Source of the DNA: Maledivibacter halophilus | GTDB taxonomy: Bacteria > Bacillota > Clostridia > Peptostreptococcales > Caminicellaceae | Direction: 5' to 3' | DNA length: 32,000 nucleotides | Assembly (NCBI RefSeq): GCF_900167445.1 | Contig: NZ_FUZT01000009.1 | Location: forward strand, 169,058 to 201,057 | Shown: positions 2,874 through 32,000 of the stretch, piece by piece | Layout of the letters: every line of letters starts with the position of its first letter | Numbering within the stretch: position 1 is the stretch's first letter | Position numbers and translations under genes: made by a program | Notes under the pieces: generated by a model | What the model was told of the DNA's origin: nothing | Database searches by the model: none | What the model saw: only the letters and a program-made list of their open reading frames with translations

Positions 2874-4061
2874 ATGAATTTGCCATTAGAAAATATTAAG
2901 GTTTTAGACTTAACTAGGGTATTGGCAGGCCCATATTGTACAATGATTTTAGCTGATTTGGGAGCCGAAGTCATTAAAGTTGAAAGGCCCTATACTGGAG
3001 ATGATTCAAGGGCATTTGGTCCATATGTGGAAAATGAGAGCATGTATTTTATTAGTATAAATAGAAATAAAAAAAGTATTACAGTTAATTTAAAAAGTGA
3101 TAAAGGAAAGGATATTATTAAGGAATTAGTTAAGAAGGTTGATATAGTAGTTGAAAACTTTAAGCCCGGAACGATGGAAAGATTAGGGCTGGGATATGAT
3201 ACATTAAAATCAGTAAACGAAAAAATTATTTATGCCGGATTATCAGGATTTGGCCATTATGGACCTTATAGCAGCAGACCAGCCTATGATGGAGTAGTTC
3301 AGGCCATGGGTGGGATAATGAGTATTACAGGTCAAGAAGGAGGAGAACCAACGAGGGTTGGCTCTTCAATAGGAGATATATTTGCTGGGATTTTTGGTGC
3401 TATAGGGATATTATCAGCAATTAATAAGAGAAAAGTTGACAGGCTAGGAATGAAAGTAGATGTATCTATGCTGGACTGCCAGGTTGCAGTACTTGAAAAT
3501 GCTATTTCTAGATACTTTGCAACGGGAAAATCTCCAGTACCTATGGGTAATAAACATTCTTCCGTTGTTCCCTTCGAACCTTTTAGTACAAAAGACGGAA
3601 AAATAATGATAGCAGTAGGAAACGATAATTTATGGTTGAAGTTTTGCACATCAATAAACAGGGAGGATTTAAAAAAGGATGGAAGGTTTAAAACAAATCT
3701 TTTAAGATATAATAATTATGATTATCTAAGGCCAATAATCCAAAAGGAATTAATTAAAAAGACTACGAAGGAATGGGAAAAAATCCTGATAAATGAAGGA
3801 ATTCCTAGTGCACCTATTAATAATATAGAGATGTTGGTCAATAATGAACAGGTAATTGCGAGAAAAATGATTCAGCAGATAAAGCATCCTAAAGCCGGTA
3901 GGGTAAGTATTCCTGGAGTTCCTATTAAGATAAGTGGGTGCTCTGATGACATAAGGTTTTCTGCTCCAGTGCTTGGGCAGCATACAGAGGAAATTTTAAA
4001 GGAATATTTAAGTATATCTAGTGACAATCTTGAGATAATGAGAAAGGAAGAAGTTATATAA
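2874..4061 (+). CDS. Family III CoA-transferase (CaiB/BaiF family)
   Basis: The sequence MNLPLENIKVLDLTRVLAGPYCTMILADLGAEVIKVE is the canonical family III N-terminus. I chose the start at ATG 2874 because it has a GGAGAGG RBS and lies downstream of the terminator hairpin. The track start at 2781 is rejected. Confidence 0.88.
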   Translation: MNLPLENIKVLDLTRVLAGPYCTMILADLGAEVIKVERPYTGDDSRAFGPYVENESMYFISINRNKKSITVNLKSDKGKDIIKELVKKVDIVVENFKPGTMERLGLGYDTLKSVNEKIIYAGLSGFGHYGPYSSRPAYDGVVQAMGGIMSITGQEGGEPTRVGSSIGDIFAGIFGAIGILSAINKRKVDRLGMKVDVSMLDCQVAVLENAISRYFATGKSPVPMGNKHSSVVPFEPFSTKDGKIMIAVGNDNLWLKFCTSINREDLKKDGRFKTNLLRYNNYDYLRPIIQKELIKKTTKEWEKILINEGIPSAPINNIEMLVNNEQVIARKMIQQIKHPKAGRVSIPGVPIKISGCSDDIRFSAPVLGQHTEEILKEYLSISSDNLEIMRKEEVI

Positions 4062-4072
4062 AGAAGCTATTC

Positions 4073-4136
4073 TAACCTGTTGTGCTAGTAAATGAAATAT
4101 TAAAAACTCCGGTATAGGAACTAGCACAACAAGTTA
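4073..4136. repeat. Palindromic intergenic repeat element, short copy (A)
   Basis: TAACCTGTTGTGCTAGT (4073-4089) pairs with ACTAGCACAACAAGTTA (4120-4136) with 1 mismatch. The arms enclose AAATGAAATATTAAAAACTCCGGTATAGGAA. Both the arms and the core recur at 11706-11888. Confidence 0.7.
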
Positions 4137-4179
4137 TTTTAAGGAGTAGGGTAATTTTATGCTGCTGTTTGTATTTCAA

Positions 4180-4902
4180 TTAAACAATTTTTCCAATTAA
4201 ATTTATAGGAACTGAAAAGTCCTTATTTAGTTTACCCTCACTAATAGCTATTAGTGTTGTACATGGTCCAGCAGATTTATAAATATCTATCTCGAAATTA
4301 TCTTCAAATTGAATTTCTATACCTTGATATTTACACAGCTTATCTAGCTCACCCTTTATTCCGGAGGAGCCAACAGGTATAATTTCTTTTATATTTTTTA
4401 ATTTCAATATCTTCTCTAATATTTTTATATCACATATAAGTCCTTGATTTTCTAAGACCTCATTTCCAATACTTGGGATACCTATAGAATAAATGGAACT
4501 ATTCTTGTAAATACTATCTATCACAATATCATCTTTATTTATAATTCCAAAACCAGTTATACCTAAAGCAGTCATTGAAGTTTTCATGTTTTTTTCTGTA
4601 CTTATTGTAATTGGAATATTAAATTCTAGTTCTGATATTTCATTTTGTACTCCTTTTAAAATTTCATCTCCAGTTGGATTAGGCTCATTGGAAATATTAG
4701 CGGTAATACCTATAGGTTTAGCACCTATAGATATAATTTCCATAAGACATACTCTGGTTGTATACTTTCCAGTAATATTGTATGGAACCTTTACAATATC
4801 ATTTTCTTTTAATCCTATGGCTCCACATGAATCACAGGCTATAACTAAGTATTGAGATTCATTGAGGCTGATAAAATTCACATCTCTATGTTTATAAATC
4901 AT
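4180..4902 (-). CDS. AIR-synthase-related (PurM/ThiL-like) ATP-binding protein; possibly a CblS-like kinase
   Basis: 240 aa. The motif LVIACDSCGAIG and the overall pattern resemble short AIR-synthase-related proteins. The gene lies 3 nt downstream of the ECF S-component gene on the same strand. The CblS assignment rests on recalled gene pairing only. Confidence 0.55.
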   Translation of the reverse strand: MIYKHRDVNFISLNESQYLVIACDSCGAIGLKENDIVKVPYNITGKYTTRVCLMEIISIGAKPIGITANISNEPNPTGDEILKGVQNEISELEFNIPITISTEKNMKTSMTALGITGFGIINKDDIVIDSIYKNSSIYSIGIPSIGNEVLENQGLICDIKILEKILKLKNIKEIIPVGSSGIKGELDKLCKYQGIEIQFEDNFEIDIYKSAGPCTTLIAISEGKLNKDFSVPINLIGKIV

Positions 4903-5644: not shown

Positions 5645-6340
5645 ATGGAGCTAGAATTTATAGGGAAGTTAACCCTTCAATTGATTTTAGGTTTTTTTTC
5701 ACTTTTAATTATTACAAAGATATTAGGGAAAACTCAAATAAGTCAGGTAACGCCCTTTGATTTTATTTCTTCTTTGGTATTGGGAGAGCTTTTAGGAAAT
5801 GTAGTTTATGATAAAGAAATTCATATATTTGTATTTTTATATGCAATTTTTATGTGGACATTTTTAATATATATTATAGAAGTAATAACACAAAAATTCA
5901 GACGTACTAGAAGTTTTTTTGAAGGCAATCCTTCAATTTTAATTAGAAATGGACAAATTGATTTTCATCAGTTAAAGAAAGAAATGTTAGATATAAATGA
6001 ACTTATGAGCCTTCTAAGAGGAAGAGATATTTTTTCAATTAGGGAAGTGCAATATGCCATTTTAGAACCAAATGGATCACTGAGTATATTAAAAAAATCT
6101 AAATATGATACTCCAACAAAGGAAGAATTAAATATTGTTAATAAGGAGGTATATTTGCCTGTAGCCTTTATACTGGATAAGGAAATTATATGGGAAAACC
6201 TTAATGCTTGTGGATTTGATGAAAGCTGGCTTAGAAAAGAACTTGAAGCTAGTGGTATAAAGGACATAAATGAAATTTTTTTTGCAGAATGGAAATATGA
6301 TGAGGGCTTACATATTGTTCCATTTAGGGAAAAGAAATAA
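5645..6340 (+). CDS. DUF421 (YetF-like) membrane protein
   Basis: N-terminal TM helices plus the ISQVTPFDFISSLVLGELLGN motif, and a C-terminal soluble domain ending ..FAEWKYDEGLHIVP. Confidence 0.8.
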   Translation: MELEFIGKLTLQLILGFFSLLIITKILGKTQISQVTPFDFISSLVLGELLGNVVYDKEIHIFVFLYAIFMWTFLIYIIEVITQKFRRTRSFFEGNPSILIRNGQIDFHQLKKEMLDINELMSLLRGRDIFSIREVQYAILEPNGSLSILKKSKYDTPTKEELNIVNKEVYLPVAFILDKEIIWENLNACGFDESWLRKELEASGIKDINEIFFAEWKYDEGLHIVPFREKK

Positions 6341-6365
6341 TAAAAATTTTTGGAGGATTATGTTA

Positions 6366-7052
6366 ATGAAATATTTAGATACGGTAATGGAATTAGTCAT
6401 AGGTTTTATGGCTCTTTTTATTATTACAAAGATGATTGGTAAAAGACAAATTAGTCAGATTACTCCTTTTGATTTTATTTCTGCCATAGTATTGGGTGAA
6501 CTTTTAGGCAATGCCATATATGATAAAGAAATTGGATTACTATATATTATAAGTACATTGTTATTATGGGGAGTTCTTATGGTATTAGTTGAATTAATCA
6601 CACAGAAATTTAGAAAAACAAGGGGATTTTTAGAAGGCAATCCTTCTATAGTGATTAGGCAGGGATTAATTGATCGTAAGGAGTTAAACAAAAATAAGAT
6701 AGATATTAATGAATTACTAAATATGCTAAGACAAAAAGATGTTTTTTCAGTTCGTGAAGTTGAGTATGGAATTTTAGAAGCTGATGGAAAAATGAGTGTT
6801 TTGAAAAAATCTAAATATACACAGCCTACAATCGAGGATTTAGGGCTAACTAAAAAACCTTCATATTTGCCATTTGCATTAATTATTGATGGAGAGATTG
6901 TATTGGACAATCTAAAGAATAGTGGATTTGATGAAAAATGGCTCCAGATACAATTAAATAATCAGGGGTTTGATAGGGCTAAGGACATATTCTATGCTGA
7001 ATGGAAACAAGACGAAGGAATGCATATTGTACCTATGAAAGAAAAAGCATGA
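6366..7052 (+). CDS. DUF421 (YetF-like) membrane protein; tandem paralog
   Basis: The same motifs as the upstream gene (ISQITPFDFISAIVLGELLGN ... YAEWKQDEGMHIVP). I chose the start at ATG 6366 (or 6360) behind GGAGG at 6353-6357. The track start at 6270 overlaps the previous gene. Confidence 0.8.
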   Translation: MKYLDTVMELVIGFMALFIITKMIGKRQISQITPFDFISAIVLGELLGNAIYDKEIGLLYIISTLLLWGVLMVLVELITQKFRKTRGFLEGNPSIVIRQGLIDRKELNKNKIDINELLNMLRQKDVFSVREVEYGILEADGKMSVLKKSKYTQPTIEDLGLTKKPSYLPFALIIDGEIVLDNLKNSGFDEKWLQIQLNNQGFDRAKDIFYAEWKQDEGMHIVPMKEKA

Positions 7053-20228: not shown

Positions 20229-20449
20229 TTGAGTAAATTGCATAATATATGTAAAGAATTTTAAAATTAATAATGTTAATTATGCAAGTTTCTTAATTAA
20301 GTACAATTGAATAAAGGAAAAAAGAGGAGCAGAAATTAGTTTGCAGAAAAAATCTTATAGTGAAAAAGCATGAGGATATCGTAGTCTGTATTAATAATTT
20401 TATATTTATTGAATTTTAGGTATTTATATTTTTAGTATTCATAAAAGTT

Positions 20450-20480
20450 TTTATAAAAGAAGGAGGCAAAATGCCTCCAA
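20450..20480 (-). terminator. Terminator of the thi operon
   Basis: GGAGGCA (20462-20468) pairs with TGCCTCC (20472-20478). On the minus strand TTCTTTTAT follows. It begins 4 nt after the thiE stop. Confidence 0.65.
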
Positions 20481-20483
20481 ACT

Positions 20484-21083
20484 TTAGATGCTTTTTACTT
20501 TTTCAGATAATTTTCTAGCTGATGAATATGGGTCAAGGGATGACATTATATATGACATCACTGCCACTCCATCTGCTCCTGCTTTAATAATATCTCGAAT
20601 ATTTTTTTCATTAATTCCCCCAAGGGCTATAACGGGAATATTGACTTTAGATTTAATATTTTTTATTAAATTAATTCCTTTAGGTTTAAGTCCTTTTTTA
20701 CAATCAGTTTCAAAAATATGACTGGCTAAAATATATTTAGCTCCATATTTTTCAGCATCTATTGCTTCCTTTACACTATGGACTGATAATCCAAACAGTA
20801 CTCCATTTAAATCTGGTTTGTGGTTTTCAAAATCCTTAATACCTATATGAAAAAAGTTAGCATTAGAAATTATAGCGGATTTTAAGTTCCCATTAATTAT
20901 TAATTGAGCACTAAAGGAATTAGTTATATTTCTCAGTTTGAATACAATGGGAAGCAGTTCTTTATATGCTAAATCCTTTTCACGAAGTATGACTGCTTCG
21001 GTTCCACCCCGTAGAGCTTCTAAAACTACACTGTATAGATTACCAGATTTTATTAATTTCCTATTGGTTATGAGATAAAGCAC
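20484..21083 (-). CDS. thiE: Thiamine-phosphate synthase
   Basis: 199 aa with LYLITNR, ILREKD and PVIALGGI..N motifs. It is the last gene of the thiSFGHCE operon. Confidence 0.9.
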   Translation of the reverse strand: MLYLITNRKLIKSGNLYSVVLEALRGGTEAVILREKDLAYKELLPIVFKLRNITNSFSAQLIINGNLKSAIISNANFFHIGIKDFENHKPDLNGVLFGLSVHSVKEAIDAEKYGAKYILASHIFETDCKKGLKPKGINLIKNIKSKVNIPVIALGGINEKNIRDIIKAGADGVAVMSYIMSSLDPYSSARKLSEKVKSI

Positions 21084-21084
21084 A

Positions 21085-22398
21085 TTAGTCGTCCTCTCTC
21101 AATATATTAATATTTTTTCCTTTCATAACTTTATTCATATTTCTCATTGAACACATTTTCCCACACATTGTACAGCTATCATCGTGCTCTGGAGTAGATT
21201 CCTTCCTATATCTTCTTGCTTTTTCCTCATCAATTGAAAGATTAAACATTTTTTCCCAATTCAGATTTTGTCTTGCCTTACTCATTTCATAATCCCACTG
21301 CTTTGCACCAGGAATATTTTTGGCTATATCTGCTGCATGGGCTGCAATTTTAGTGGCAATAATTCCTTCCTTCATATCTTCAAGATTAGGTAATCTTAAA
21401 TGTTCTGCCGGTGTAACATAACAAAGGAAATCGGCACCATTAGAAGCTGCAATGGCCCCACCTATGGCACTTGTAATATGATCATATCCTGGAGCTATAT
21501 CAGTTACAATAGGTCCTAATACATAGAAAGGAGCACCATGGCAAAGCTTTTTCTCAATAAGCACATTAGCTTTTATTTCATTTATAGCCACATGACCTGG
21601 GCCTTCTATCATTACTTGAACATTTCTTTCCCATGCTCTTTTAGTTAGTTCTCCAAGTATCATTAATTCTTTGATTTGGCTTGCGTCGGTTGCATCATTT
21701 ATACTTCCGGGACGGCAAGCATCTCCAAGGCTAAGGGTAACATCGTATTTTTCACAAATATCAAGAAGCTCATCATAATACTCAAAAAATGGGTTTTCTT
21801 CATTATTAAGTTCCATCCAAGCATAAATAAGAGAGCCACCCCTTGAAACTATGTGATTAAGTCTTCTATTTCTCTTGAAAACCTCAGCAGTTTCTCTGTT
21901 GATTCCTGCATGAATTGTTATAAAGTCAACACCATTTTCAGCATGTTTATGGGCTACGTCTAAGAATTCTTTGGCAGTAATATCCTTAAGCTCTTTATCA
22001 TAGAAACCTACAGCATCATAGATTGGTACAGTTCCAATCATGGCTGGTGACATATCAACAAGCCTTGTTCTAAATTCTTCAGTTTTTCCATAGGAGCTTA
22101 AGTCCATAATGGCTTCTACATTAAATTCTAGAGCTCCTTTTACCTTTTCAAGCTCTTTTTCTATATTATAGCAGTCCTTTGAAATACCAAGATTCACATT
22201 TATTTTTGTTCTTAGTCCTTCGCCAACTCCTTCAGGATTTAAGGACTTATGATTCTTGTTTGCAGGGATTACTATTTTTCCCTCAGCTATTCTTTTTCGT
22301 AATATGTCTATATCCATACCTTCTTTTTTAGCTACTATTTTCATTTCTTCAGTGATAATTCCTTTTTTAGCAGCATCCATTTGAGTTGTATAATTCAT
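21085..22398 (-). CDS. thiC: Phosphomethylpyrimidine synthase
   Basis: 437 aa with typical ThiC motifs ([26 protein letters not shown], and the C-terminal CTMCGKMCS cluster). Confidence 0.95.
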
Positions 22399-22422
22399 AT
22401 GTAAATCATCCTTTCATTTATT

Positions 22423-23526
22423 TTATATTTGCAACCAGTCTTTAAACACTGGTTGATAGCCTTTACTTAATAATATTCTTTTCATTTCTTCTACACTGCG
22501 TTTGTCAGAGATTTCAAACTGACTGTCGCTTTTTGTCTTAGAAGAATGACCTCCTACTTCAGTAGATACTCCCCCAGACATTTTGGTAACTCCTAGGGGA
22601 ATAAGATTATCTCTAAAATTTTGACTTTCTCTTGTTGATATTGTTATACCAGCCCTTGGCAGAAAAAGTCTCAGTGCCAGTAATATTTGTACTAAGCTTT
22701 TATCATCTACTAGAAAAATATCGTTAAAGCTTCCTACATGGGGTCTAATCCTTGGAAGGGATACACTTATCTCTGTATCGGAATATTTATTCTGGAGATA
22801 TAGGGCATGAAGTCCTGTGAAAAAGCCTTCCTTTCTCCAATCGTCTAATCCTAAAAGTGCTCCAATATTTACACTATGGATTCTTGCTTTACATGCTCTT
22901 TCCGGTGCATTTAATCTAAAATCATAATTTTTCTTTGGACCGGCTATATGAACCCGATCATATATTTCTTCATTGTAAACTTCCTGATATATTGTAAGGG
23001 AGTCAACGCCAGCCTTTACAACTTTGCTATATTCTTCTTCAGTTAATGGATAAATTTCTATGGCAATAGAATCAAAATATTTTTTAAGAATTTTTACAGC
23101 ATCAATAATATATGACACTGGACTATCCTTTTTTGATTCACCGGTTAATATTAAAATATGTCTCAAACCTGTTTTAGAAATTGCCTTGGCTTCCTGCTCT
23201 ATTTCTTCTAGAGTCAGCTTTTTTCTTATAATATTATTTGAAACATTGAATCCACAGTAAGAGCATTTATTGACACAATGATTAGCAATATACATGGGAG
23301 TAAATAAGTGCATTATTTTACCAAAATTCTGTACCGTTAATCTATGGGATTTTTGGGCCATTTCTTCTAAAAAGTTTTCAGCTGCTGGAGATAATAAAGT
23401 TAAAAAGTCATATTTATCTAGTTTTTCTTTATTAATTACTCTTTGAATATCTTGCTTAGTTATTTCACTAAAGAAATTAGAAAAATCAAAATCCTTTATT
23501 TTGCTGTATTCATTATAGAAGGACAT
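22423..23526 (-). CDS. thiH: 2-iminoacetate synthase (radical SAM)
   Basis: 367 aa with the radical-SAM motif [10 protein letters not shown]. It sits between thiG and thiC. Confidence 0.92.
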
Positions 23527-23539
23527 TTTAATACCACCT

Positions 23540-24307
23540 TTACTTATTCAGAAATCCTGTTAATGGAGAAGAAGCCTCTGCAAATTCTTTCTCTGGGGCT
23601 GTTTTTGAAAGATAGGCTATTCTTCCAGCTTTGACACTCAAATTGAAGGCTTTACCCATATTTATAGGATCACCGGCAGTTGCTATTGCAGTATTGACTA
23701 AAACTGCATCTGCTCCTATTTCCATAGCCTCGGCAGCATGTGAGGGCTTACCTATACCTGCATCTACAATAACTGGCAGATTAATTTCATCTATTAGTAT
23801 TCTGATTAATTCCTTAGTTTCGAGTCCCCTATTTGTACCTATTGGAGCTCCTAGGGGCATAACTGCTGCGGCTCCAGCATTTACTAGATTTTTGGCAGCC
23901 ATTAAGTCAGGACTCATATATGGAAGAACTACAAAACCTTCTTTAGCTAAAGTTTCTGTGGCTTTTATGGTTTCATAGTTATCTGGAAGAAGATACTTAT
24001 TATCAGAAATAACTTCGATTTTTATCCAGTTACCACATCCCATAGCCTTTGCAAGTCTTGCTATTCTAACTGCTTCATCGGCATTTCGTGCACCAGAAGT
24101 ATTGGGTAGTAAAATGTAGTCCTTTGGAATATAATCTAATATATTTTCCTCCTTTGATTTCAAATCTACTCTTCTAAGGGCCATTGTAATTACCTTAGAC
24201 TCAGAGCTTTTTATTACGTCTGGAATAATTTTTTTGTTTGGAAATTTTCCTGTGCCTATAAAGAGCCTATTATCAAGTTCTACATCACCAATAATTAATT
24301 TGTCCAT
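23540..24307 (-). CDS. thiG: Thiazole synthase
   Basis: 255 aa with [30 protein letters not shown] and VLVNTAIA motifs. Confidence 0.95.
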
Positions 24308-24309
24308 TT

Positions 24310-25116
24310 TTACACATCCTTTTCTCCCATTATTATTCTCAAAACTGTATTGGCTTGATGGTTAGCAGCAATTGCAACTCTAGGAGACATAAGTCCACAT
24401 CCGGGTTTTGCTTCAGATACATCATCCCCTATTAAATAAAAATTTTCTCTAATTTTTTTTGTTGCTATGGTATTGCTGGAAAAATAGCCTGCCAATCCAG
24501 AGGCTGCCACTATCTTTTTTTCAGGCATTTTCTGTAATACAATATTTATGAGCTTCGCCTTGGATCTGGGATTATCAAAGGCTTCAACTATTATGTCTAC
24601 ATCAGAGAAAATTTCTTCTACATTGTTTTCATCTATATAAGTATCTTTAGTTTCTATTTTTACAAAGGGATTGATTTTTGAAATTAAATCTTTCATAGCT
24701 TCAGTTTTTTTCATTCCCAAATGCTTTATAAAGTATTGCTGTCTGTTTAAATTACTAGGTTCAACTATATCAAAGTCTATGAGTTTTAAATATCCTATTC
24801 CAATTCTAGCCAGTGAAATTGAAGCATTTGAGCCCAAGCCTCCAAGTCCAGCAATTCCAACTCTGGCTTTTTTTATTTTTTCATGAACTCCCGGCGTATG
24901 ACGTGATATCATAAGGGCTTCAAGCTCTTCATAGGATGGTATTTCGCCTTTTTTTATAAGGCTTATTCTATCCTGCTTTTTAAGGGGAATATCTTCACTT
25001 ATGATAAATCCGTTGTGAATTACTATATCTGCATTGGGTCTATAGCTTTCTTTTATAGAAAAAGCTGTAGCCTTATTATCTACAATAATGAGTTTTTCGT
25101 TAAGGAAGATTTCCAT
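24310..25116 (-). CDS. thiF: ThiF-family sulfur-carrier adenylyltransferase with an extra N-terminal domain of about 85 aa
   Basis: [23 protein letters not shown] is the E1-like nucleotide-binding motif. I prefer ATG 25116, behind GGTGG. The track start GTG 25125 would overlap thiS. Confidence 0.85.
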
Positions 25117-25117
25117 T

Positions 25118-25309
25118 CTAACCACCGCCTACTAGACTAATAATTTCAATTTTATCTTTTTTGTTAAGCATAAAATTTTTATAGTTTTCCCTGGAAATGA
25201 TTTTAAAGTTTACTTCTACAACTACTTTATTCATGTCGAGATTTAGATTTTTAAGCAGATCGAGAATTGTAATATTTTGAAAATCCATTTTCTTGTCATT
25301 TACTATCAT
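25118..25309 (-). CDS. thiS: Sulfur-carrier protein ThiS
   Basis: 63 aa ending in ..SLVGGG. A strong RBS AAGGAGG lies upstream. Confidence 0.88.
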   Translation of the reverse strand: MIVNDKKMDFQNITILDLLKNLNLDMNKVVVEVNFKIISRENYKNFMLNKKDKIEIISLVGGG

Positions 25310-25351
25310 GCCGGACCTCCTTTCATTGATTGATGGTTAAAGTAAAATAGT

Positions 25352-25372
25352 TAAAGTTAATATATAACTTTA
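25352..25372. promoter_or_regulatory. 21-bp palindrome P1, TAAAGTTA-ATATA-TAACTTTA
   Basis: Perfect 8-bp arms. It lies 43 nt upstream of the thiS start (minus-strand gene). Confidence 0.5.
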
Positions 25373-25411
25373 TATATTTATGTAATCATTGAAAAATGTT
25401 ACCTTCATAGC

Positions 25412-25432
25412 TAAAGTTAAAGTTTAACTTTA
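25412..25432. promoter_or_regulatory. 21-bp palindrome P2, TAAAGTTA-AAGTT-TAACTTTA
   Basis: Perfect 8-bp arms, exactly 60 bp from P1. Confidence 0.5.
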
Positions 25433-25590
25433 AGTATAGAGAAACAATTTATACATCATAAACAATCCTAGGAGCATAGATGTTTTTAAAATCTATAAAT
25501 AAACCTTTTAATCAGTTAAATTTAGATGGTTTAAGTTAATATGGAGCTTTAGGTATCTAGATAGTTGTTGGAAAACCTCATTTTCAAGGT

Positions 25591-25611
25591 TAAAGTTAAA
25601 TTTGAACTTTA
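25591..25611. promoter_or_regulatory. 21-bp palindrome P3, TAAAGTTA-AATTT-GAACTTTA
   Basis: 8-bp arms with one mismatch. It lies just downstream (in the minus-strand sense) of the second leader terminator. Confidence 0.45.
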
Positions 25612-25623
25612 AATTGTGAATAT

Positions 25624-25657
25624 GAAATAAAAAAGGAAGCAGATAATCTGCTTCCCT
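25624..25657 (-). terminator. Second rho-independent terminator in the thi leader
   Basis: GGAAGCAG (25635-25642) pairs with CTGCTTCC (25648-25655) around a 5-nt loop. On the minus strand TTTTTTTATTT follows. Confidence 0.7.
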
Positions 25658-25721
25658 CATAACACTCATAGTATAAGAATATAGTAAGTGAAAATAAATG
25701 TTTTTAATGTTTAACAAGCTT

Positions 25722-25757
25722 TAAATAAAAAATCACAAATTCTAGGAATTTGTGATA
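25722..25757 (-). terminator. Expression-platform terminator of the TPP riboswitch
   Basis: The stem ATCACAAATT / AATTTGTGAT lies at 25732-25756. On the minus strand TTTTTTATTT follows. It is about 40 nt downstream of the aptamer. Confidence 0.75.
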
Positions 25758-25796
25758 AGTAATAAACTATATTATATAAAAATACTTACTATAACA

Positions 25797-25886
25797 CACT
25801 TCCCTACGGTGGGATTAACCACGTCAGGTTATGAGGGTCAGAAATAACATTTCTATCTCAGCCTATTATATAGGCTCCCCTAGTTA
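25797..25886 (-). promoter_or_regulatory. TPP (THI-box) riboswitch aptamer
   Basis: The minus strand reads ACTAGGGGAGCC..GGCTGAGA..ACCCTCATAACCTGACGTGGTTAATCCCACCGTAGGGA, which contains the conserved CUGAGA, ACCCU..AACCUGA and CGUAGGGA elements. Confidence 0.9.
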
Positions 25887-25910
25887 CTATTAAATTTTTT
25901 CTTCAAAGGA

Positions 25911-25939
25911 ATTATAACATGTTTTGAAGAATTTTACAA
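25911..25939 (-). promoter_or_regulatory. Sigma-A promoter of the thi leader
   Basis: On the minus strand: TTGTAA (25939-25934), a 17-nt spacer, then TATAAT (25916-25911). It is about 25 nt upstream of the riboswitch. Confidence 0.65.
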
Positions 25940-26009
25940 CATAAATGATTAGTCTAAAAGAAAAAAATTCTTAAAGTACAAATTATTGTAAGAAAATAAT
26001 GGAGGGAAA

Positions 26010-26390
26010 AGATGGAATATGTAGAATTATAGAAACATACAGAATTTAACATTCTATTATTTATATGTTAGCCAGGCATTAAGTTCTATTAAATTTTTAT
26101 ATAAATATGTTTTAAGCAAGGAAAGAAAAGATAGATATACAATTCTTTCCCAAATAGTTTTAAATATTCTTAGGGAATATGCAAAATATGAAAAACCAGA
26201 AGATTGGTTATTTACAGGAGGAAAAGAAGGTGAATATTTAAAGGAACGATCAGTTCAACTCTTAGATATATACAAGAAGTATTAGGGCATACAAGTTCAA
26301 AGACCACCGAAATATATACTCATGTGAGTAAAACAAACTTAACAAAAATAAAAAGTCCTTTAGATAAAATATTAAAAAAAGACAATTAAT
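26010..26390 (+). pseudogene. Tyrosine recombinase (integron-integrase/XerC-like) pseudogene with internal deletions and frameshifts
   Basis: Fragments lie in different frames: ..SQALSSIKFLYKYVL / SKERKDRYTILSQIVLNILREYAKYEKPEDWLFTG..ERSVQ / LRYIQEVLGHTSSKTTEIYTHVSKTNLTKIKSPLDKIL*. These are N-terminal SAM-like, KDRY, and catalytic HxxR..Y-region motifs. Most of the catalytic domain is missing. Confidence 0.75.
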
Positions 26391-26435
26391 ATTACTAATA
26401 GAAAGGTTTTAAAGGTATATACAGCTATAGGAAAG

Positions 26436-26517
26436 CATTACCGACATAAATAGTCGCGTAACATACTTATCTAGAAGTATTAGCGACATGGGTTAGTCGG
26501 TAACGCATTAGTTAGAT
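26436..26517 (+). other. Complex palindromic recombination-site candidate (attI-like or attC-like) ending in the GTTAGAT core
   Basis: A 71-nt imperfect palindrome: GCATTACCGAC..GTCGCGTAAC-ATACTT-atctag-AAGTAT-TAGCGAC..GTCGGTAACGC. It is followed by CGGTAAC, 6 nt, and GTTAGAT (26511-26517). It contains four TAAC/GTTA-type boxes. Confidence 0.5.
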
Positions 26518-26635
26518 AAAATTCCCAACTCATTTCGGAGATTACTATTGGGTTATTTAATATTGGATTAGAATATGAGTTGTGAATAATCAATAGATGA
26601 AGTATATTTATGAAGATTGAGGGGATGGTTTGATT

Positions 26636-27586
26636 ATGTATCTAAAAAGAAAATATATTAGTCTATTATATGTATTAATAATTGCTCTTACTGTTGGGTG
26701 TAGCAACAGTATGGAAGAAATTGTTTACAATTTTCCTTTAGAAAGAGATGTAGTAGAGCAAGTAATATTAGAGAAACAATTAACTTGGCGCATAGAAGAT
26801 GAACAATCTCTTAACGAAGGCCAATCAAATTTCTCATTAAGAGATGAAGATAACGTTTTTTGCAGTATAAATAGTACAGACGGAGAATGGGGAAGAGTTA
26901 TAATATTACAATTCCATTTTCCACTAGATTATACAACAGAGCAAATACAGCAGTTTAATAAAGAAGAATGGCCTAGTATATTTGAACTTACCTGTACTTT
27001 TTACGGAAATAGTAAAAATGCAAAAAAAATCTATAAAGAGTTTTTAGGTTATTTAAAAGGCAGGAACAGTAATGAATATGATTATGGATACTTTACAAAA
27101 CGTATAGACGATACTCATTTTAGAGTAAAATTAGCTCCATTCACAAATAATAGCAACTATTATCAAATAGCTACTTTAGAAATTTTAAATAGTGAGACTT
27201 ATGAAAAAAGAGCATTTGAATTTGCAAAAGGATGGATAAATAGGGCAAAAAGACAAGGAATAAAAGTATTAGACAATATTAGTGTTTCTGATATTATAGA
27301 AATTAAAACAGAAGATGAGGAATTACGGTTAATTGTTGAAGGTCATTTAGAGGATATTCAAGAATTAAAAAATATACCTAAAAATCTTCAAGAAGTACTT
27401 ACCCATCACGCACATAAGGACGACTATTTTACCGCCAAGTTAGTGGACGATACTAGTAGTATGGATGTGTTTGTTCTTGCTACTTCTCTTAACTCTAGAG
27501 AATTAGGACAAGATAGAAGTCATCATATTAATTATTATACTAAAGGGAAATTAAGTGTTATAAATTTTAGTCCATTAAATGAATAA
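26636..27586 (+). CDS. Hypothetical lipoprotein
   Basis: Signal peptide with lipobox (..LIIALTVGC SNS). No family recognised. The start could be ATG 26636 or TTG 26630, both after GAGGGGA. Confidence 0.7.
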   Translation: MYLKRKYISLLYVLIIALTVGCSNSMEEIVYNFPLERDVVEQVILEKQLTWRIEDEQSLNEGQSNFSLRDEDNVFCSINSTDGEWGRVIILQFHFPLDYTTEQIQQFNKEEWPSIFELTCTFYGNSKNAKKIYKEFLGYLKGRNSNEYDYGYFTKRIDDTHFRVKLAPFTNNSNYYQIATLEILNSETYEKRAFEFAKGWINRAKRQGIKVLDNISVSDIIEIKTEDEELRLIVEGHLEDIQELKNIPKNLQEVLTHHAHKDDYFTAKLVDDTSSMDVFVLATSLNSRELGQDRSHHINYYTKGKLSVINFSPLNE

Positions 27587-27745
27587 AGAATATTTGAATA
27601 ACAAGTATGAATATAAAGTTGCTACTTCTTAAAACATAAAGAAAAATTTACTATTTTCAACTATCATAAAGGTTATTTTAATATAAATGATTTAAAAGAT
27701 ATTTATTTACATTAAATTGAGAATAAAAAATTAAGGAGATTAATA

Positions 27746-28411
27746 ATGAATGAAAAACAATTAATTGCAGAAAAAGCAGTTGATTTTATCAAGGATGGAA
27801 TGATTGTTGGCTTAGGAACAGGTTCAACTGCTTATTGGGCAATTACAAAAATAGGTGAATTAGTTCGAAATGGTATGAATATTAAAGGTGTTCCAACATC
27901 TATAAATACAGAAAAATTAGCACAAAATTTAAATATTCCTTTAGTGAATATTTCTGAGATTAAAAAAATAGATATAACAATTGATGGGGCTGATGAGTTT
28001 GATGAAAATAAAAATGTTATAAAAGGTGGTGGAGGTGCACTTTTAAGAGAAAAAATTATTGCTTCAATTACTAATTATTATATTATAATAGCTGATTCTT
28101 CTAAAAAAGTAGAAGTTTTGGGAAACTTTCCATTACCTATAGAAGTAACTCCTTTTGCTCATGAGATAACAATTTATCAATTAAAACAGTTAGGATGTTC
28201 AACGAATTTAAGGTTAGAAAATGACAAACCATTTATAACTGATAATAAGAATTTCATAGTTGATTGCAAATTCAATAGGATTAACAAACCAGAAGAATTA
28301 GCAAATAAATTAAATAGTATTCCAGGTGTTGTAGAGCATGGATTATTTTCAAATATGGCAGATATTCTAGTTACCGTAAATAATTGTGGAGAAATTTCAA
28401 TTATTGAATAG
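27746..28411 (+). CDS. rpiA: Ribose-5-phosphate isomerase A
   Basis: 221 aa with GLGTGSTA, DGADE and KGGGGALLREKI motifs. A strong RBS AAGGAG lies upstream. Confidence 0.92.
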   Translation: MNEKQLIAEKAVDFIKDGMIVGLGTGSTAYWAITKIGELVRNGMNIKGVPTSINTEKLAQNLNIPLVNISEIKKIDITIDGADEFDENKNVIKGGGGALLREKIIASITNYYIIIADSSKKVEVLGNFPLPIEVTPFAHEITIYQLKQLGCSTNLRLENDKPFITDNKNFIVDCKFNRINKPEELANKLNSIPGVVEHGLFSNMADILVTVNNCGEISIIE

Positions 28412-28474
28412 CATTATATGATAGCTTATTTAAATTACTATGGAGGCGGTTTTCATAGGTCGAGCGACCACATC

Positions 28475-28510
28475 ATCTAACATTGTGTTTAGCGTAAAGG
28501 TGCGCAGAAG
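28475..28510 (+). repeat. attC-like repeat, 5' half only (truncated)
   Basis: ATCTAAC (RYYYAAC) followed by att-GTGTTTAGCG-TAAAGGTGC. This parallels the 5' end of the 30156 copy (GTCTAAC-aac-GAATTTACG-TAAAGGTGC). No matching 3' half or GTTRRRY core is present. Confidence 0.5.
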
Positions 28511-28514
28511 AATT

Positions 28515-28790
28515 GTACGCGTTGGAACACATACTGGACATGATAACCTTAAGACTAGATTATATTCACATTTTAGAGGAAAAAATCAAAGAAGTAGTAT
28601 TTTTAGGCGGAATATTGGTCGGGTTTATTTAAATAAAGATAATAAGAATTATTTACCAATTTGGAATTCCAGTAGAAATAATAAGAGTTCAACTCTTAGA
28701 TATATACAAGAATTATTAGGACATAGAAGTTCAAAGACAACAGAAATATATACTCATTTAGAAGTATTAGCGACATATGAGAGTCGGTAA
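28515..28790 (+). pseudogene. Mosaic remnant: fragment of a GIY-YIG-like cassette gene fused to a second copy of the recombinase 3' tail and half-palindrome
   Basis: VGTHTG..LKTRLYSHFRGKNQRSSIFRRNIG resembles GIY-YIG-type proteins (weak). Positions 28686-28757 repeat 26252-26323 with 5 mismatches in 72 nt (LRYIQELLGHRSSKTTEIYTH). Positions 28758-28793 repeat the right half of the 26436-26506 palindrome. Confidence 0.6.
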
Positions 28791-28832
28791 CGTAACATAT
28801 GCCTATATTTGTTAAACCGAGGAGGTCAAAAA

Positions 28833-29426
28833 ATGAGATATATTTTTGCAATTGGTGGAGGAGAAATAAGTGAGTTAGAAACATTTGGTATAGATAAAAA
28901 GATAGTTGAAGCTGCTAAAAAGGCTAAACCGAATGTATTATTTATACCTACAGCTAGTGGAGAACCACAAGGATATATAGATTCATTTAACAACGTATAT
29001 GGTAAAAAGCTTGGATGTAAGACAGATGTCCTTTTATTGTTAGAAGGTAAAATACTTTGTGGTTTAAGTGCTGGCTCAATTTGCTGGTTTAAAAGTGGCC
29101 ATGGTGACTCTGAAAGTTTTGAAACAGAAGGTAAATGGAATTATATAAGGGTAGAAGGAATAAACCTATTAGATGCTATGCACTGTCCACACTATAATGA
29201 AGATAATAGAGAAGAAGATTTTTCAAAGAAGATATTAGAATATGATGAGATTGGTATAGCTATTGATAACAACTGTGCAATTGAATTTAAAGAAAATAGC
29301 TATAGAGTACATAAAACAGAAAAAGAAGCAAAAGCTTACAAAGTTTATCTAGACAAGGGACAAATTATAAAAGAAGAGTTGGTTAATATAACAGAGTATA
29401 AGTCAGTTAAAAGAGTTGTTTTGTAA
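28833..29426 (+). CDS. Peptidase S51 (dipeptidase E-like) family protein, probably with an in-frame internal deletion
   Basis: IFAIGGGE, LFIPTAS and the nucleophile motif CGLSAGSICWF are present. The Ser lies at about residue 79 instead of about 120, and the GGGNT segment is absent. ATG 28833 follows GGAGG and the core GTTAAAC (28811-28817). Confidence 0.65.
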   Translation: MRYIFAIGGGEISELETFGIDKKIVEAAKKAKPNVLFIPTASGEPQGYIDSFNNVYGKKLGCKTDVLLLLEGKILCGLSAGSICWFKSGHGDSESFETEGKWNYIRVEGINLLDAMHCPHYNEDNREEDFSKKILEYDEIGIAIDNNCAIEFKENSYRVHKTEKEAKAYKVYLDKGQIIKEELVNITEYKSVKRVVL

Positions 29427-29441
29427 GTAGGGCATACGATC

Positions 29442-29581
29442 ACCTAACAATGCCTTACCGTTCGCTACGTGAAGTAAGTTTCTAGGGTTAGTGAAGCACA
29501 TGTTTTCACTGGGTGCAATCACCACCAAGGAGTATTCTTTATGGGTCCGTTCAAGCACGTAGGCAAGCCGAGATGTTAAGC
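29442..29581 (+). repeat. attC-like repeat (140 bp, subfamily 1)
   Basis: Starts with ACCTAAC (RYYYAAC) 15 nt after the stop codon and ends with GTTAAGC (GTTRRRY). Inner boxes GCCTTACC / GGCAAGCC have asymmetric spacers (3 vs 5 nt). It is much more GC-rich than the flanks. Confidence 0.6.
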
Positions 29582-29621
29582 GAAAATTAGTGGTAACTAC
29601 ATTTAAATGAAGGTGGTTTAT

Positions 29622-30125
29622 ATGAAAATCTTAATATTTCTTCATGGAACAATAATAATGCATAAAAATGGTCTTGATAAAAGTAGAGAAGAAAGAGTAA
29701 AGCAAGTTTTGAGTGATGATAACTCAATTCATGATTTTTTAAATTATATTCCGATTGGTAAGTCATATGAAAAATTAAAAATTTGGGTTAAGCAAGAAGT
29801 GGAAATTTTCTATCTCAGTTCCAACCAGTTACTTGATGATATAAATAAAGATCTTTTTGTTTTGAGAAAATATGAATTTCCAAAAGGTAAATTGTTATAT
29901 AGAAAAAATGGTCAAAGTTACAAAGATATTGCAGAAGAAATAATACCAGACATTCTGATTGAAGATAATTGTGAAAGTATTGGTGGAACAGCTGAAATGG
30001 TTTACCCAAATATGTCAAGTTTAATAAAAAAACAAGTTAAATCTATTGTATTAAAAGAATTTGAAGGAATAGATAAGTTACCAACTAATGTTGAAGATTT
30101 AAAAGACTGGTATAAAATAGTTTGA
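29622..30125 (+). CDS. Hypothetical protein (167 aa)
   Basis: RBS GAAGGTGG precedes ATG 29622. No family recognised. The gene is bounded by attC-like repeats on both sides. Confidence 0.6.
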   Translation: MKILIFLHGTIIMHKNGLDKSREERVKQVLSDDNSIHDFLNYIPIGKSYEKLKIWVKQEVEIFYLSSNQLLDDINKDLFVLRKYEFPKGKLLYRKNGQSYKDIAEEIIPDILIEDNCESIGGTAEMVYPNMSSLIKKQVKSIVLKEFEGIDKLPTNVEDLKDWYKIV

Positions 30126-30155
30126 ATCTTTGTGTCATGGGAATCACTAACCATC

Positions 30156-30278
30156 GTCTAACAACGAATTTACGTAAAGGTGCTTTTAGAGAAGATTATT
30201 GAGGTAGATGAACCACATTTCTTCACTAAGGGTAGCCGCCTTAGAGTTCAGAGACGTCGCAAATACAAAACGTTATCT
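30156..30278 (+). repeat. attC-like repeat (123 bp, subfamily 2)
   Basis: GTCTAAC-aac-GAATTTACG ... CGCAAATAC-aaaac-GTTATCT. The 5' core matches RYYYAAC. The 3' core deviates from GTTRRRY (GTTATCT). The central segment GAACCACATTTCTTCACT is shared with subfamily 1. Confidence 0.55.
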
Positions 30279-30340
30279 AACATTTTATTTCATTTTTTAT
30301 TTATAGAATTATTTGAGCTTGTACAGGAGGCGATTAAATA

Positions 30341-31134
30341 ATGGGCAAATTTCATGATGTCAATTTTATTAATCTACCATATAAATTAAAATCAATGCAT
30401 TGTTGGAAAAAGATACTATTGGTTGTTCTAGTTCAGAGATATTTTTTCTTGAAGGTATCTCAAGTGGAGGAAATGCATATTTGAAAGTCTGTAGTAGTGA
30501 AAGTGATTCTATGGAAAAAGAAAAAAATATTTTAAATTGGCTGGATGGGAAAGTACCTGTTCCAAAGGTGCTTCATTATAATGTTTTCGATAATAAACAA
30601 TTCATGCTAATTTCAGAAATAAAAGGTTTAAATGCAGCTCATTATTATTATACTTCTAAACCAGCCACAGTTGACACAATGTTAGCAAGATCTCTTAGAT
30701 TAATTCATGATATAGATATAACGTGCTGTCCATTTGATAGTAGGCTTAATATAAAGATTGGTGAAGCCAAAAAACGTGTTGATTGTGGATTAGTGGATGA
30801 AAATAACTTTGAAGAAAATTATATATGAAAGGCAAGTGAAGAATTATATAAAATGGTTTTAGAAAAGAAACCTGATAATGAAGATTTTGTTTTTACTCAT
30901 GGTGATTATTGTATGGCTAACATAATATTATTGGGTAATAAATTGAGTGGATTTATTGATTTAGGAAGAGCAGGAGTTAGTGATAGATATCAAGATATAG
31001 CATTAGCAGTACGTAGTTTTGAACATAATTTTGGAACAGACAAGTGGAATGATTTATTTTATAAAGAATATGGCATTGAAGATGTGGACTATTCTAAAAT
31101 AGAATTTTATATTTTGCTTGATGAATTGTTTTAG
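30341..31134 (+). pseudogene. aph(3')-like aminoglycoside phosphotransferase pseudogene
   Basis: NWLDGKVPVPKVLHY, FTHGDYCMANI, GFIDLGRAGVSDRYQDIALAVRS and the C-terminal YILLDELF closely parallel APH(3')-III. The reading frame shifts near 30395-30405. An in-frame TGA lies at 30826-30828. Confidence 0.8.
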
Positions 31135-31158
31135 AAAAAGGGAATGAAATAAAACGTC

Positions 31159-31300
31159 AGATAATAATACCTTGCCGTTCACTGTGTAAAGCAAGTTTTT
31201 AGGGTAAGCGCAGCACATACCTTCACTGGGAGCAAGCTCCACCAAGAGAGCATTCCTTACGGGCCCAGTTCAGGCACGTCGGCAATCCGGGACGTTAGCT
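31159..31300 (+). repeat. attC-like repeat (142 bp, subfamily 1)
   Basis: Colinear with 29442-29581, at roughly three-quarters identity by eye. The 5' core is degenerate (AGATAAT). It ends in GTTAGCT. Inner boxes are TTGCCG / CGGCAA. Confidence 0.55.
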
Positions 31301-31441
31301 GACATCGGACAAAAAGATAGCCGCGCGTCCATGTGCAGATTTGATAGGGATGAACTATGTAGAAGTTTAACTCAATAGTTAGATATGACTAAATAACAAA
31401 TGATTATAAAATTAATACTATTTAAATTGGAGGTAAAATCA

Positions 31442-31933
31442 ATGGAAGCAAAAGTAAGACAAGCAGTAGATAGTGATAGAGATATTTTTGTTGATTACAC
31501 AGTAAAATTAAGTAAATTCAATCGAAGTAATCATGCTAATGAATCAAAAAATGATGATTATGAATCAGTTTTAAATGCAATACAAAGAAAAGCTGAAAAA
31601 ACATTCTGTAATAGAAATGAAGAGACTTTAATCTTAATTGCAGAATTAGAAAATAAACCTGTAGGATATGCATTAGGCAGAATATATGAACAGGATGAAA
31701 CAGCTGATAATGGAACAGGTTTAATGGGATTATTTGATGAGTTATTCGTTGATGATATAGCAAGAGGGCTTGGATTAGGACAAAAACTATTAGATAAAAC
31801 GATTATCTGGATGAAAGAAAAAGGAATTAATAGAGTTAAATTACATGCTTATTCTTGGAACAGTAATGCTAAAAAAGTATATGAACGAAATGGTTTTAAA
31901 GAATATGCAGTATCGTATGAAAAGTTTATCTAA
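31442..31933 (+). CDS. GNAT-family N-acetyltransferase
   Basis: ..LFVDDIARGLGLGQKLLDKTIIWMKEKGINRVKLHAYSWNSNAKKVYERNGF is the acetyl-CoA-binding motif A/B region of GNATs. ATG 31442 follows GGAGG. Confidence 0.85.
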   Translation: MEAKVRQAVDSDRDIFVDYTVKLSKFNRSNHANESKNDDYESVLNAIQRKAEKTFCNRNEETLILIAELENKPVGYALGRIYEQDETADNGTGLMGLFDELFVDDIARGLGLGQKLLDKTIIWMKEKGINRVKLHAYSWNSNAKKVYERNGFKEYAVSYEKFI

Positions 31934-32000
31934 TTTTATCGCATCATGAATATATTTTTAATCATAGTATTTTAGCTAATATTATTTATACTATATGAAA

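Follow-up and report, generated by a model that had tools for sequence, protein, structure and literature searches.

A window of 32,000 nt from Maledivibacter halophilus (assembly GCF_900167445.1, contig NZ_FUZT01000009.1, positions 169,058–201,057 of the forward strand) was analysed, and its right-hand part is probably the start of a chromosomal cassette array of an integron-like site-specific recombination system, with an adjacent tyrosine recombinase that has no IntI-specific insertion. The locus is read as a decayed member of a widespread integron-like system that would be an insertion-less variant of the integron. An earlier note, made from the letters of the window, had described an integron-like array headed by a decayed tyrosine-recombinase gene in a Clostridia-like genome; M. 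halophilus, whose NCBI ThiC protein is identical to the one encoded in the window, indeed belongs to the class Clostridia, and the recombinase remnant was located at 26025–26390 (+).

Repeat sites and extent of the array

From 26.6 kb to the window end every credible open reading frame (ORF) is on the + strand, and four GC-rich sites (GC 0.43–0.55 versus ~0.27 around them; ~110–140 nt from core to core) follow genes, the first of them (C1, 28469–28542) being truncated. The 5' cores (R'') are ATCTAAC at 28475, ACCTAAC at 29442, GTCTAAC at 30156 and AGATAAT at 31159, and the 3' cores (R') are GTTAAGC at 29575, GTTATCT at 30272 and GTTAGCT at 31294; all were found where the earlier note had placed them, but the RYYYAAC/GTTRRRY consensus proposed there was replaced by xxTAAC/GTTAKNYG, which fits. 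The GNAT protein at the window end is also encoded on L001, a contig of 7.8 kb from the same sequencing run, which overlaps the window from 31209. When the array was followed to the right on this contig, as the note had advised, it ran on with at least seven more sites (xxTAAC...CGTTAxx ends), all sites and genes being on one strand: site C5 lies at L001 886–1048 and is followed by six further cassettes, with genes for a 455-aa unknown protein, an HD-domain protein, a 300-aa membrane protein, a second GNAT protein, a glyoxalase and a PHP-domain protein (all +). One site on L001 (2477–2617) has a different, simple-hairpin interior.

A covariance model was built from six sites of the M. halophilus array. 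The three complete window sites scored E = 1e-36 to 4e-24 with this model, and with filters off no other match below E = 0.3 was obtained in the 32 kb. Applied to other loci, the model gave 147 matches in genome loci and 203 in metagenome loci, corresponding to 297 distinct sites in 79 loci, with a median site spacing of 946 nt and up to 16 matches in 12 kb. A search of the window and three loci against Rfam, at gathering and E-value thresholds, returned only a thiamine pyrophosphate (TPP) riboswitch, the sites being unmatched even at E = 1 (Rfam contains no attC family); a promoter and terminator scan gave counts at chance level, and the sites have no T-tract terminators.

Cassette boundaries at G|TT

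In integrons, crossover takes place at G|TT of the 3' core, so that whatever follows the G is part of the next cassette and is expected to pair with the 5' core in the site at the end of that cassette. The 21 nt to the left of each R'' were reverse-complemented and compared with the junctions; for eight of the nine sites C3–C11 the best match was the junction upstream of the site's own cassette (11–18 of 21), whereas the downstream junction of the same site scored 5–12 of 21; the exception was C8, with 11/21 at the upstream junction versus 12 at an unrelated one in an ungapped count. In the window, the flank of C3 matched the upstream junction (J2) at 12/21 and its own junction at 5/21, and the start of the APH cassette (30273–30313) is complementary to 31124–31164 (18/21 in the junction count). 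The R'' core of the truncated C1 (ATCTAAC) is likewise complementary to GTTAGAT at 26511. In 60 neighbouring site pairs drawn from about 30 other arrays, the mean match was 12.1/20 at the upstream junction, 7.75 at the own junction and 6.98 at random, and the upstream junction beat the own junction in 52 pairs (Wilcoxon p = 2e-9).

A second line of evidence came from a cassette with a 115-aa gene, which is 99.6% identical between L011 (Firmicutes bacterium UBA2058) and L081 (a contig of a metagenome-assembled genome, MAG). Homology begins at the G of GTTAGGTG in both and, at the other end, stops at the CGTTA in the site that closes the cassette. Within the L081 array this cassette occupies third place, behind another site, and it is first in L011, where it is joined exactly at the platform G|TT to sequence homologous to the attI-like region of L081 (...GATGAAAGKAGTAG|TTA); this is the arrangement that insertion at a platform site would predict. 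Similarity is also lost exactly at the 3'-side junction in L062/L066 and L064/L076. The HD-domain cassette found in L001 and L024 is conserved in its coding part alone (78%) and is uninformative on boundaries, and the 2.1-kb block common to L009 and L023, both co-assembly MAGs, has ends that are not at cassette boundaries. Taken as comparisons of sequence, these results place the cassette boundaries at G|TT and bear out the cassette grammar that the earlier note had read from the window.

Two side observations concern the same contigs. The L011 copy of the common cassette has a 143-nt AT-rich insertion between stop codon and site. In L009 versus L023, a 106-nt loss within a site (L009 5341–5446 versus L023 1968/1969) would fuse two cassettes, a situation similar to the absence of a site between the window's lipoprotein gene and rpiA.

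The boundary rule and the common cassette with G|TT ends are inexplicable if the repeats are generic elements similar to repetitive extragenic palindromes (REP) or miniature inverted-repeat transposable elements (MITE), terminators or an RNA motif, and play no part in mobility. Such elements would be intergenic, GC-rich and structured, as the repeats are, and the array-form copies in the window are no more stable than shuffles, as such an origin would allow. REP- or MITE-like copies would also be scattered in both orientations, whereas no copy occurs in the 26 kb of core genes of the window and in none of the 79 loci (0/79) do copies lie on both strands. Together with the Rfam result and the lack of T-tracts, this makes a generic repeat highly improbable.

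Site structure and strand asymmetry

Across all loci the sites have a median length of 132 nt (range 83–198) and the architecture of attC sites, namely an R stem, a spacer, an L stem, a one-arm bulge and a tip; they deviate from attC in this length range, in their xxTAAC/GTTAKNYG cores and in a conserved internal module. Pairing was found in 88.2% of cells versus 77.5% in shuffles (0/500 shuffles reached the observed value), and slid controls were 25–56% paired. Compensatory changes were present in 24 of 25 pairs of a 147-sequence alignment, pair counts being somewhat inflated because this alignment was fitted to the covariance model. The R stem is 91% paired, and the inner (L) stem of 7–9 bp covaries, its sequence differing between genomes while pairing is kept. 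The spacer measures 5–7 nt on the R' side versus 3–4 nt on the R'' side, and unpaired material (1 to >17 nt) occurs on the '' arm only.

The pairing is also asymmetric between strands. Two pairs are bottom-strand G.T pairs in 115 and 118 of 144 cases, where the top strand would have C.A mismatches. In the rebuilt basal stem of 44 clear cassettes, GTTAKNYG is paired and followed by two often-mismatched positions, then by position 11, which is a bottom-strand G.T in 40/44, and then by ~8 cassette-specific complementary bp; wobbles in total numbered 79 on the bottom strand versus 37 on the top strand. Such an asymmetry is an argument for folding of one strand only, namely the bottom strand. Excised forms, rebuilt from the site up to the G plus the start of its own cassette, gave long hairpins, and against dinucleotide shuffles the bottom-strand z values of the excised versus the array form were −4.4 versus −0.8 for C4, −7.7 versus −3.3 for C6, −7.4 versus −5.3 for C9 and −3.0 versus −0.7 for C7. 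Energy was lower for the bottom strand in five of eight reconstituted sites. These features point to the folded bottom strand as the putative recombination substrate.

If the recombinase instead acted on double-stranded cores (GTTAKNYG plus the inverted copy), in the way Xer does on dif, no folded single strand would take part and the hairpin interior would have another role or be a big palindromic binding site. The relationship of the enzyme, which is closest to XerA, a recombinase of duplex dif, would suit this, as would the lack of the IntI domain that reads extrahelical bases and the resemblance of the attI-like site described below to classical duplex cores (inverted 8–9 bp arms, 4–8 bp spacers). 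However, the bottom-strand G.T pairs and the position-11 wobble are meaningless in duplex DNA, compensatory changes keep pairing along ~130 nt and bulges are restricted to one arm, so that action on duplex cores is considered unlikely.

Some covariance matches in six loci (L067, L020, L042, L057, L063 and L064) cover only model positions 19–95, with 60–68% GC; in the sequence of L067, such partial matches are ~200-nt variants of the site with a larger 5'-arm insert.

Recombinase and platform site

The recombinase gene at the head of the array retains ~365 nt of the ~1100 nt of its relatives, and what is left falls into three pieces: the last part of the SAM-like domain (SQALSSIKFLYKYVL), a stretch RKDRYTILS...ERSVQ in which the spacing from KDR to ERSVQ is Xer-like, and, after a frameshift, STLRYIQEVLGHTSSKTTEIYTHVS..KSPLD, which contains LLGH and the tyrosine and ends at the stop codon 26388–26390. 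The stretches for the first catalytic Arg and for the HxLRH motif are deleted. Full-length relatives occur, for example, in L035 (5571–6677) and L013 (443–1300). A first search with the remnant had returned short fragments only; the resulting idea of a mini-recombinase was ruled out by these full-length neighbours.

Members of this family lie directly upstream of the arrays, in cassette orientation, in 10 loci (window, L005, L013, L034, L035, L037, L038, L065, L069 and L081). Recombinase-anchored look-ups were made for three homologs, of which two had a contig (there was no record for P0133): L037 (Tindallia californiensis) and L038 (Natronincola peptidivorans), picked by protein homology alone, both carried arrays immediately downstream. 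Gene order in these loci shows a linkage of array and recombinase.

Full-length members are ~350–390 aa long, and the catalytic residues R, K, H, R, H and Y do not vary among 24 homologs. The best NCBIfam match, which passed, was NF040815 (XerA, 'site-specific tyrosine recombinase/integron integrase'), whereas intact array neighbours reached 208 and 220 bits with TIGR02249 ('integron integrase'), below its cutoff of 265, and matched it in two pieces. The alignment to VchIntIA (2a3v) breaks where query residues 264–281 (18 aa) stand opposite IntI4 residues 180–239 (60 aa); as this gap corresponds to the IntI-specific additional domain, the recombinase is not an IntI. A genome search for an intact intI with the insertion, as advised in the note, is thus probably not the right check. 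There is good alignment with VchIntIA over the C-terminus, SPLD motif included. The best solved relatives are archaeal XerA, and an AlphaFold model (predicted local distance difference test, pLDDT, 79.7) matched XerA (3e-16) and VchIntIA (5e-16) about equally. A conserved N-terminal domain of ~70–85 aa, confident in the model, has no Pfam match and may have a role in the enzyme, which would catalyse cassette recombination. In P0121 (L035 5571–6677), residues 1–66 include invariant W35 and W42 and are predicted to form beta-beta-alpha-beta-beta-alpha-beta.

Downstream of the recombinase remnant, an attI-like platform site (26438–26522, no strand assigned) consists of two imperfect palindromes, TTACCGAC-N7-GTCGCGTAA (26438–26461) and TTAGCGAC-N8-GTCGGTAAC (26480–26504), followed by GCATTAG|TTAGATAAAAT, with the putative crossover after G26511. 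As single-stranded DNA it forms a strong hairpin (z = −5.7). A double palindrome on CGAC...GTCG is found downstream of the recombinase stop codon in eight loci (window, L005, L013, L037, L038, L065, L069 and L081), and within the sequence xAG|TTAKA, ~6 nt past the palindromes, the first cassette begins. The system has, beside the integrase gene, a site at which cassettes are joined, as at attI. In L011, an attI-like sequence (2575–2650) has no recombinase gene upstream; a 715-aa ORF (188–2335) ends 240 nt before it.

The same arrangement bears on whether the window is a canonical integron remnant, or a cluster of attC sites lacking an integron integrase (CALIN), that is served by a true IntI elsewhere, with the XerA-like neighbour as a passenger. 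The cassette grammar is the same, and the R cores TCTAAC/GTTAGA match classical attC cores, which counts for such an origin. Integrase-less arrays are also common in surveys (PMC4889954). A passenger, however, would not be expected upstream of the array and co-oriented with it in 10 independent loci, nor to predict arrays in 2/2 look-ups with a contig, and the conserved site after the recombinase stop codon is itself a cassette junction. Moreover, no IntI-type gene was present in any of the 85 loci examined, and surveys find almost no IntI in Firmicutes (PMC9024848); a canonical remnant is therefore judged very unlikely.

Distribution

A 26-nt degenerate pattern of the internal module was found in 34 stretches of species-representative genomes, all from Clostridia or Bacillota (genera Alkaliphilus, Tissierella, Anaerovorax, Vallitalea, Herbinix, Proteiniborus, Serpentinicella, Anaeromonas, Pseudobacteroides and Clostridium), and in 42 metagenome stretches. 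A scan of viral contigs with the site pattern and a plasmid search with the site as DNA query gave no match. The earlier note had mentioned genome surveys in which integrons were essentially absent from Firmicutes, which agrees with the published surveys (PMC4889954, PMC9024848), where the lack of complete integrons is called puzzling. Its suggestion that an array here would be taxonomically unusual did not stand, as many Clostridia have this type of site together with the recombinase.

The system may extend to Bacteroidota and plasmids. On plasmid NZ_CP041688.1 of Chryseobacterium sp. SNU WT5 (L085, 6983–11300), a recombinase homolog with 40% identity is followed by co-oriented genes (Crp/Fnr+RidA, a hypothetical gene and a metallophosphoesterase) with attC-like sites between them; the start of three of the cassettes is complementary to the 5' core of the same cassette, e.g. 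GTTATACGATATTTT versus GTTATACGATGTTTT, and each cassette has A/G at position 11, as in Clostridia. On Acinetobacter plasmids, a widespread truncated homolog of ~235 aa, 53.6% identical and annotated as TnpF or tyrosine recombinase, was found by protein match alone (matches H6–H25). In L013, a ParE/Phd toxin-antitoxin pair (3894–4464) lies on the opposite strand to the other cassettes. Reversed toxin-antitoxin pairs are frequent in large chromosomal integrons. L003 and L035 are 100% identical over 5.5 kb and were binned as MAGs of Anaerovorax odorimutans and Clostridium thermobutyricum in the same study; at least one bin assignment is therefore doubtful.

State of the array in M. halophilus

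All genes named in the earlier note (lipoprotein, RpiA, S51, hypothetical, APH and GNAT, + strand) are present. The first cassette (26512–28542, +) contains the lipoprotein-like ORF (26630–27586, +; a lipobox, no Pfam match) and RpiA (27746–28411, +; Pfam) with no repeat between them and is probably two fused cassettes; it ends in C1, which breaks off after CACATACTGGACATG. Next to it lies an unrelated fragment with weak GIY-YIG similarity (28543–28685, +), within a spurious ORF at 28440–28790 (GIY_YIG_2, E = 0.0049; the precomputed Pfam annotation of the called gene is GIY_YIG_3). It is followed by a second platform remnant (28686–28800, +), composed of a recombinase C-terminal fragment (28686–28757), with a Pfam match to the C-terminus of Phage_integrase, and the right attI-like palindrome (28767–28792); its direct repeats D2 and D3 are 93% identical to 26252–26323 and 86% identical to 26463–26505.

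The S51 cassette (28801–29575, +) carries a peptidase pseudogene (28833–29426, +), in which an internal, in-frame deletion is indicated by Pfam S51 matches in two stretches, and site C2 (R'' 29442–29448, crossover G 29575; 154.9 bits). The hypothetical-gene cassette (29576–30272, +) has a 167-aa ORF (29622–30125, +) and site C3 (R'' 30156–30162, crossover G 30272; 108.6 bits). In the APH cassette (30273–31294, +; site C4, R'' 31159–31165, crossover G 31294, 160 bits), the APH(3')-like gene (30343–31134, +) has a frameshift and an in-frame TGA stop at 30826, with Pfam APH on two separate ORFs. Owing to the in-frame deletion in the former and the frameshift and stop in the latter, both the S51 and the APH gene are pseudogenes. 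The GNAT cassette (31295–32000, +; acetyltransferase 31442–31933, +, Pfam) reaches the window end, and its site C5 starts 94 nt past it.

A related M. halophilus-like strain (L084, Logan SRR31549800) is 99.8% identical over window positions 20271–30036 and lacks 7.9 kb, i.e. eight cassettes between window 30036 and L001 6745. On one side the deletion junction falls within the 167-aa ORF, on the other 42 nt beyond a site; it is at an A-rich microhomology (TTTAATAAAAAAAC) and not at G|TT. The strain comparison proposed in the earlier note therefore revealed cassette polymorphism, but at a microhomology and not at the expected GTT junctions. With a dead integrase, two pseudogene cassettes, one truncated site, a two-gene first cassette and a second platform remnant that interrupts the array, the M. 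halophilus array is a fossil, since its integrase gene is destroyed and several cassettes are pseudogenes, and it now changes only through ordinary deletion.

Positions 1–25.9 kb of the window contain ordinary chromosomal genes, including aldehyde:ferredoxin oxidoreductase, CoA-transferase, 2-hydroxyacyl-CoA dehydratase activators, LrgAB, a yhfZ–yhfX cluster and a TrpR-like gene. Two YetF/DUF421 paralogs lie in tandem and overlap (5645–7052). A thiSFGHCE-type operon (− strand) lies behind the TPP riboswitch (25784–25891, −; 78 bits), which heads it and is ~130 nt from the recombinase remnant.

Proposed mechanism and weight of the evidence

In the proposed system, a cassette would consist of a gene and a ~130-nt imperfect-hairpin recombination site with an outer stem of xxTAAC/GTTAKNYG, an asymmetric unpaired spacer, a covarying inner stem of 7–9 bp, additional bases left unpaired on one of the arms, and an apical module that is conserved. 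The corresponding enzyme would be the tyrosine recombinase encoded immediately upstream in cassette orientation, related to IntI and archaeal XerA, without the IntI domain and with the N-terminal domain of ~70–85 aa. Cassettes would enter at the attI-like double palindrome 3' of the recombinase gene by strand exchange at G|TT, and an excised cassette would rebuild a basal stem of ~19 bp. By integron precedent, the folded bottom strand would be the substrate and the product would be resolved by replication.

Several points weigh against this reading. Support for the system comes from sequence comparison, and the covariance counts from an alignment fitted to the model. Isolated array-form window sites fold no better than shuffles (z −1.06 to +1.0), which is explained by each 3' core belonging to the next cassette; stability is weak in two of the eight reconstituted sites, C3 and C10, the latter with a preference for the top strand. 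The sole strain polymorphism at the locus is an ordinary microhomology deletion and not a G|TT event, which fits a dead integrase in M. halophilus. The only structurally and genetically characterised recombinases of attC hairpins need the domain that is absent here (Messier and Roy 2001, as cited in PMC9668308). Finally, the family is very large (7342 matches at E < 1e-40), and about a dozen contexts were inspected.

A broader proposal is that the system represents an old, separate branch of integrons with an integrase that has lost, or never possessed, the IntI domain, that it serves anaerobic Clostridia as their main cassette system and is present on Bacteroidota plasmids too, and that it was overlooked because integron finders require the IntI domain; the chances of this being right are rated as about even. 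If it is true, the 'absence' of integrons from Gram-positive bacteria would be partly a detection artefact, and hairpin sites could be recombined with no need for the IntI domain. The data suggest that many Clostridia own a cassette platform with a different integrase, which would change the picture of integron-type gene capture. These arrays would offer a natural test of the need for the IntI domain in the recombination of folded sites, candidates for the ancestry of IntI and possibly a cassette-shuffling tool for low-GC anaerobes. The aph and acetyltransferase cassettes, the Chryseobacterium plasmid homolog and the truncated Acinetobacter homolog beside resistance genes suggest a route of gene flow outside current resistance surveillance.

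Comparison with known systems

The literature searched contained no account of such arrays or of an insertion-less integron integrase of Clostridia; subscription journals were outside this search and a prior description is possible. A review ascribes the gap in Firmicutes to unknown host factors (PMC8946536), and Smyshlyaev et al. describe an 'integron-like' recombinase subgroup in which the insertion 'is not fully conserved', with no link to arrays (PMC8138268). In Firmicutes, IntegronFinder 2 reported 'a few CALIN' and, in Limnochorda, the one complete integron (PMC9024848). Some of these CALIN may be arrays of the Clostridia type, for which the label would be CALIN at best, as the recombinase would fail the IntI test. 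The window resembles a CALIN in being an array of sites with no functional integrase, whereas CALIN is an operational label and not a mechanism, and in other genomes a dedicated recombinase adjoins the array.

With XerA and the XerC–XerD–dif system the arrays share the kind of recombinase, which passes NCBIfam XerA and has archaeal XerA as its best solved relatives. Xer sites, in contrast, are 28-bp duplexes (11-6-11), whereas those described here are ~130-nt direct-orientation hairpins with strand-asymmetric pairing, arrayed by the recombinase gene. The pdif modules of Acinetobacter plasmids differ in that their sites alternate in orientation, while here they are direct. The locus is accordingly of neither the Xer/dif nor the pdif kind.

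Judged by the sequence-level criteria of Mazel 2006 and Cury et al. 2016, the system appears integron-like on every one tested, but its protein departs in the feature taken as defining: the IntI-specific domain is regarded in the literature as defining and necessary (PMC9668308, citing Messier and Roy 2001; PMC8138268). As in classical integrons, there are one-gene cassettes, imperfect hairpins with TAAC...GTTA cores, an unpaired spacer, an inner stem, one-arm unpaired bases and a variable tip, crossover at G|TT, a platform site beside the integrase gene and unrelated cargo that includes aph and GNAT genes and a reversed ParE/Phd pair. Unlike them, the Clostridia system has a recombinase without the IntI-specific domain (18 versus 60 aa) and with an extra N-terminal domain, an integrase gene co-directional with the cassettes, longer sites (median 132, up to ~200 nt) with a conserved internal module, an excised basal stem of ~19 bp with a fixed G.T at position 11, cores that deviate from GTTRRRY, and hosts among the Clostridia. 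Transcription of the integrase in the direction of the cassettes is shared with the 'inverted' integrons of Spirochaetota (Treponema) and with archaeal integrons, the latter also having attI immediately downstream of the integrase gene (PMC9668308); the integrases of both keep the IntI domain (for archaeal integrons, PMC9668308), whereas the Clostridia family is without it.

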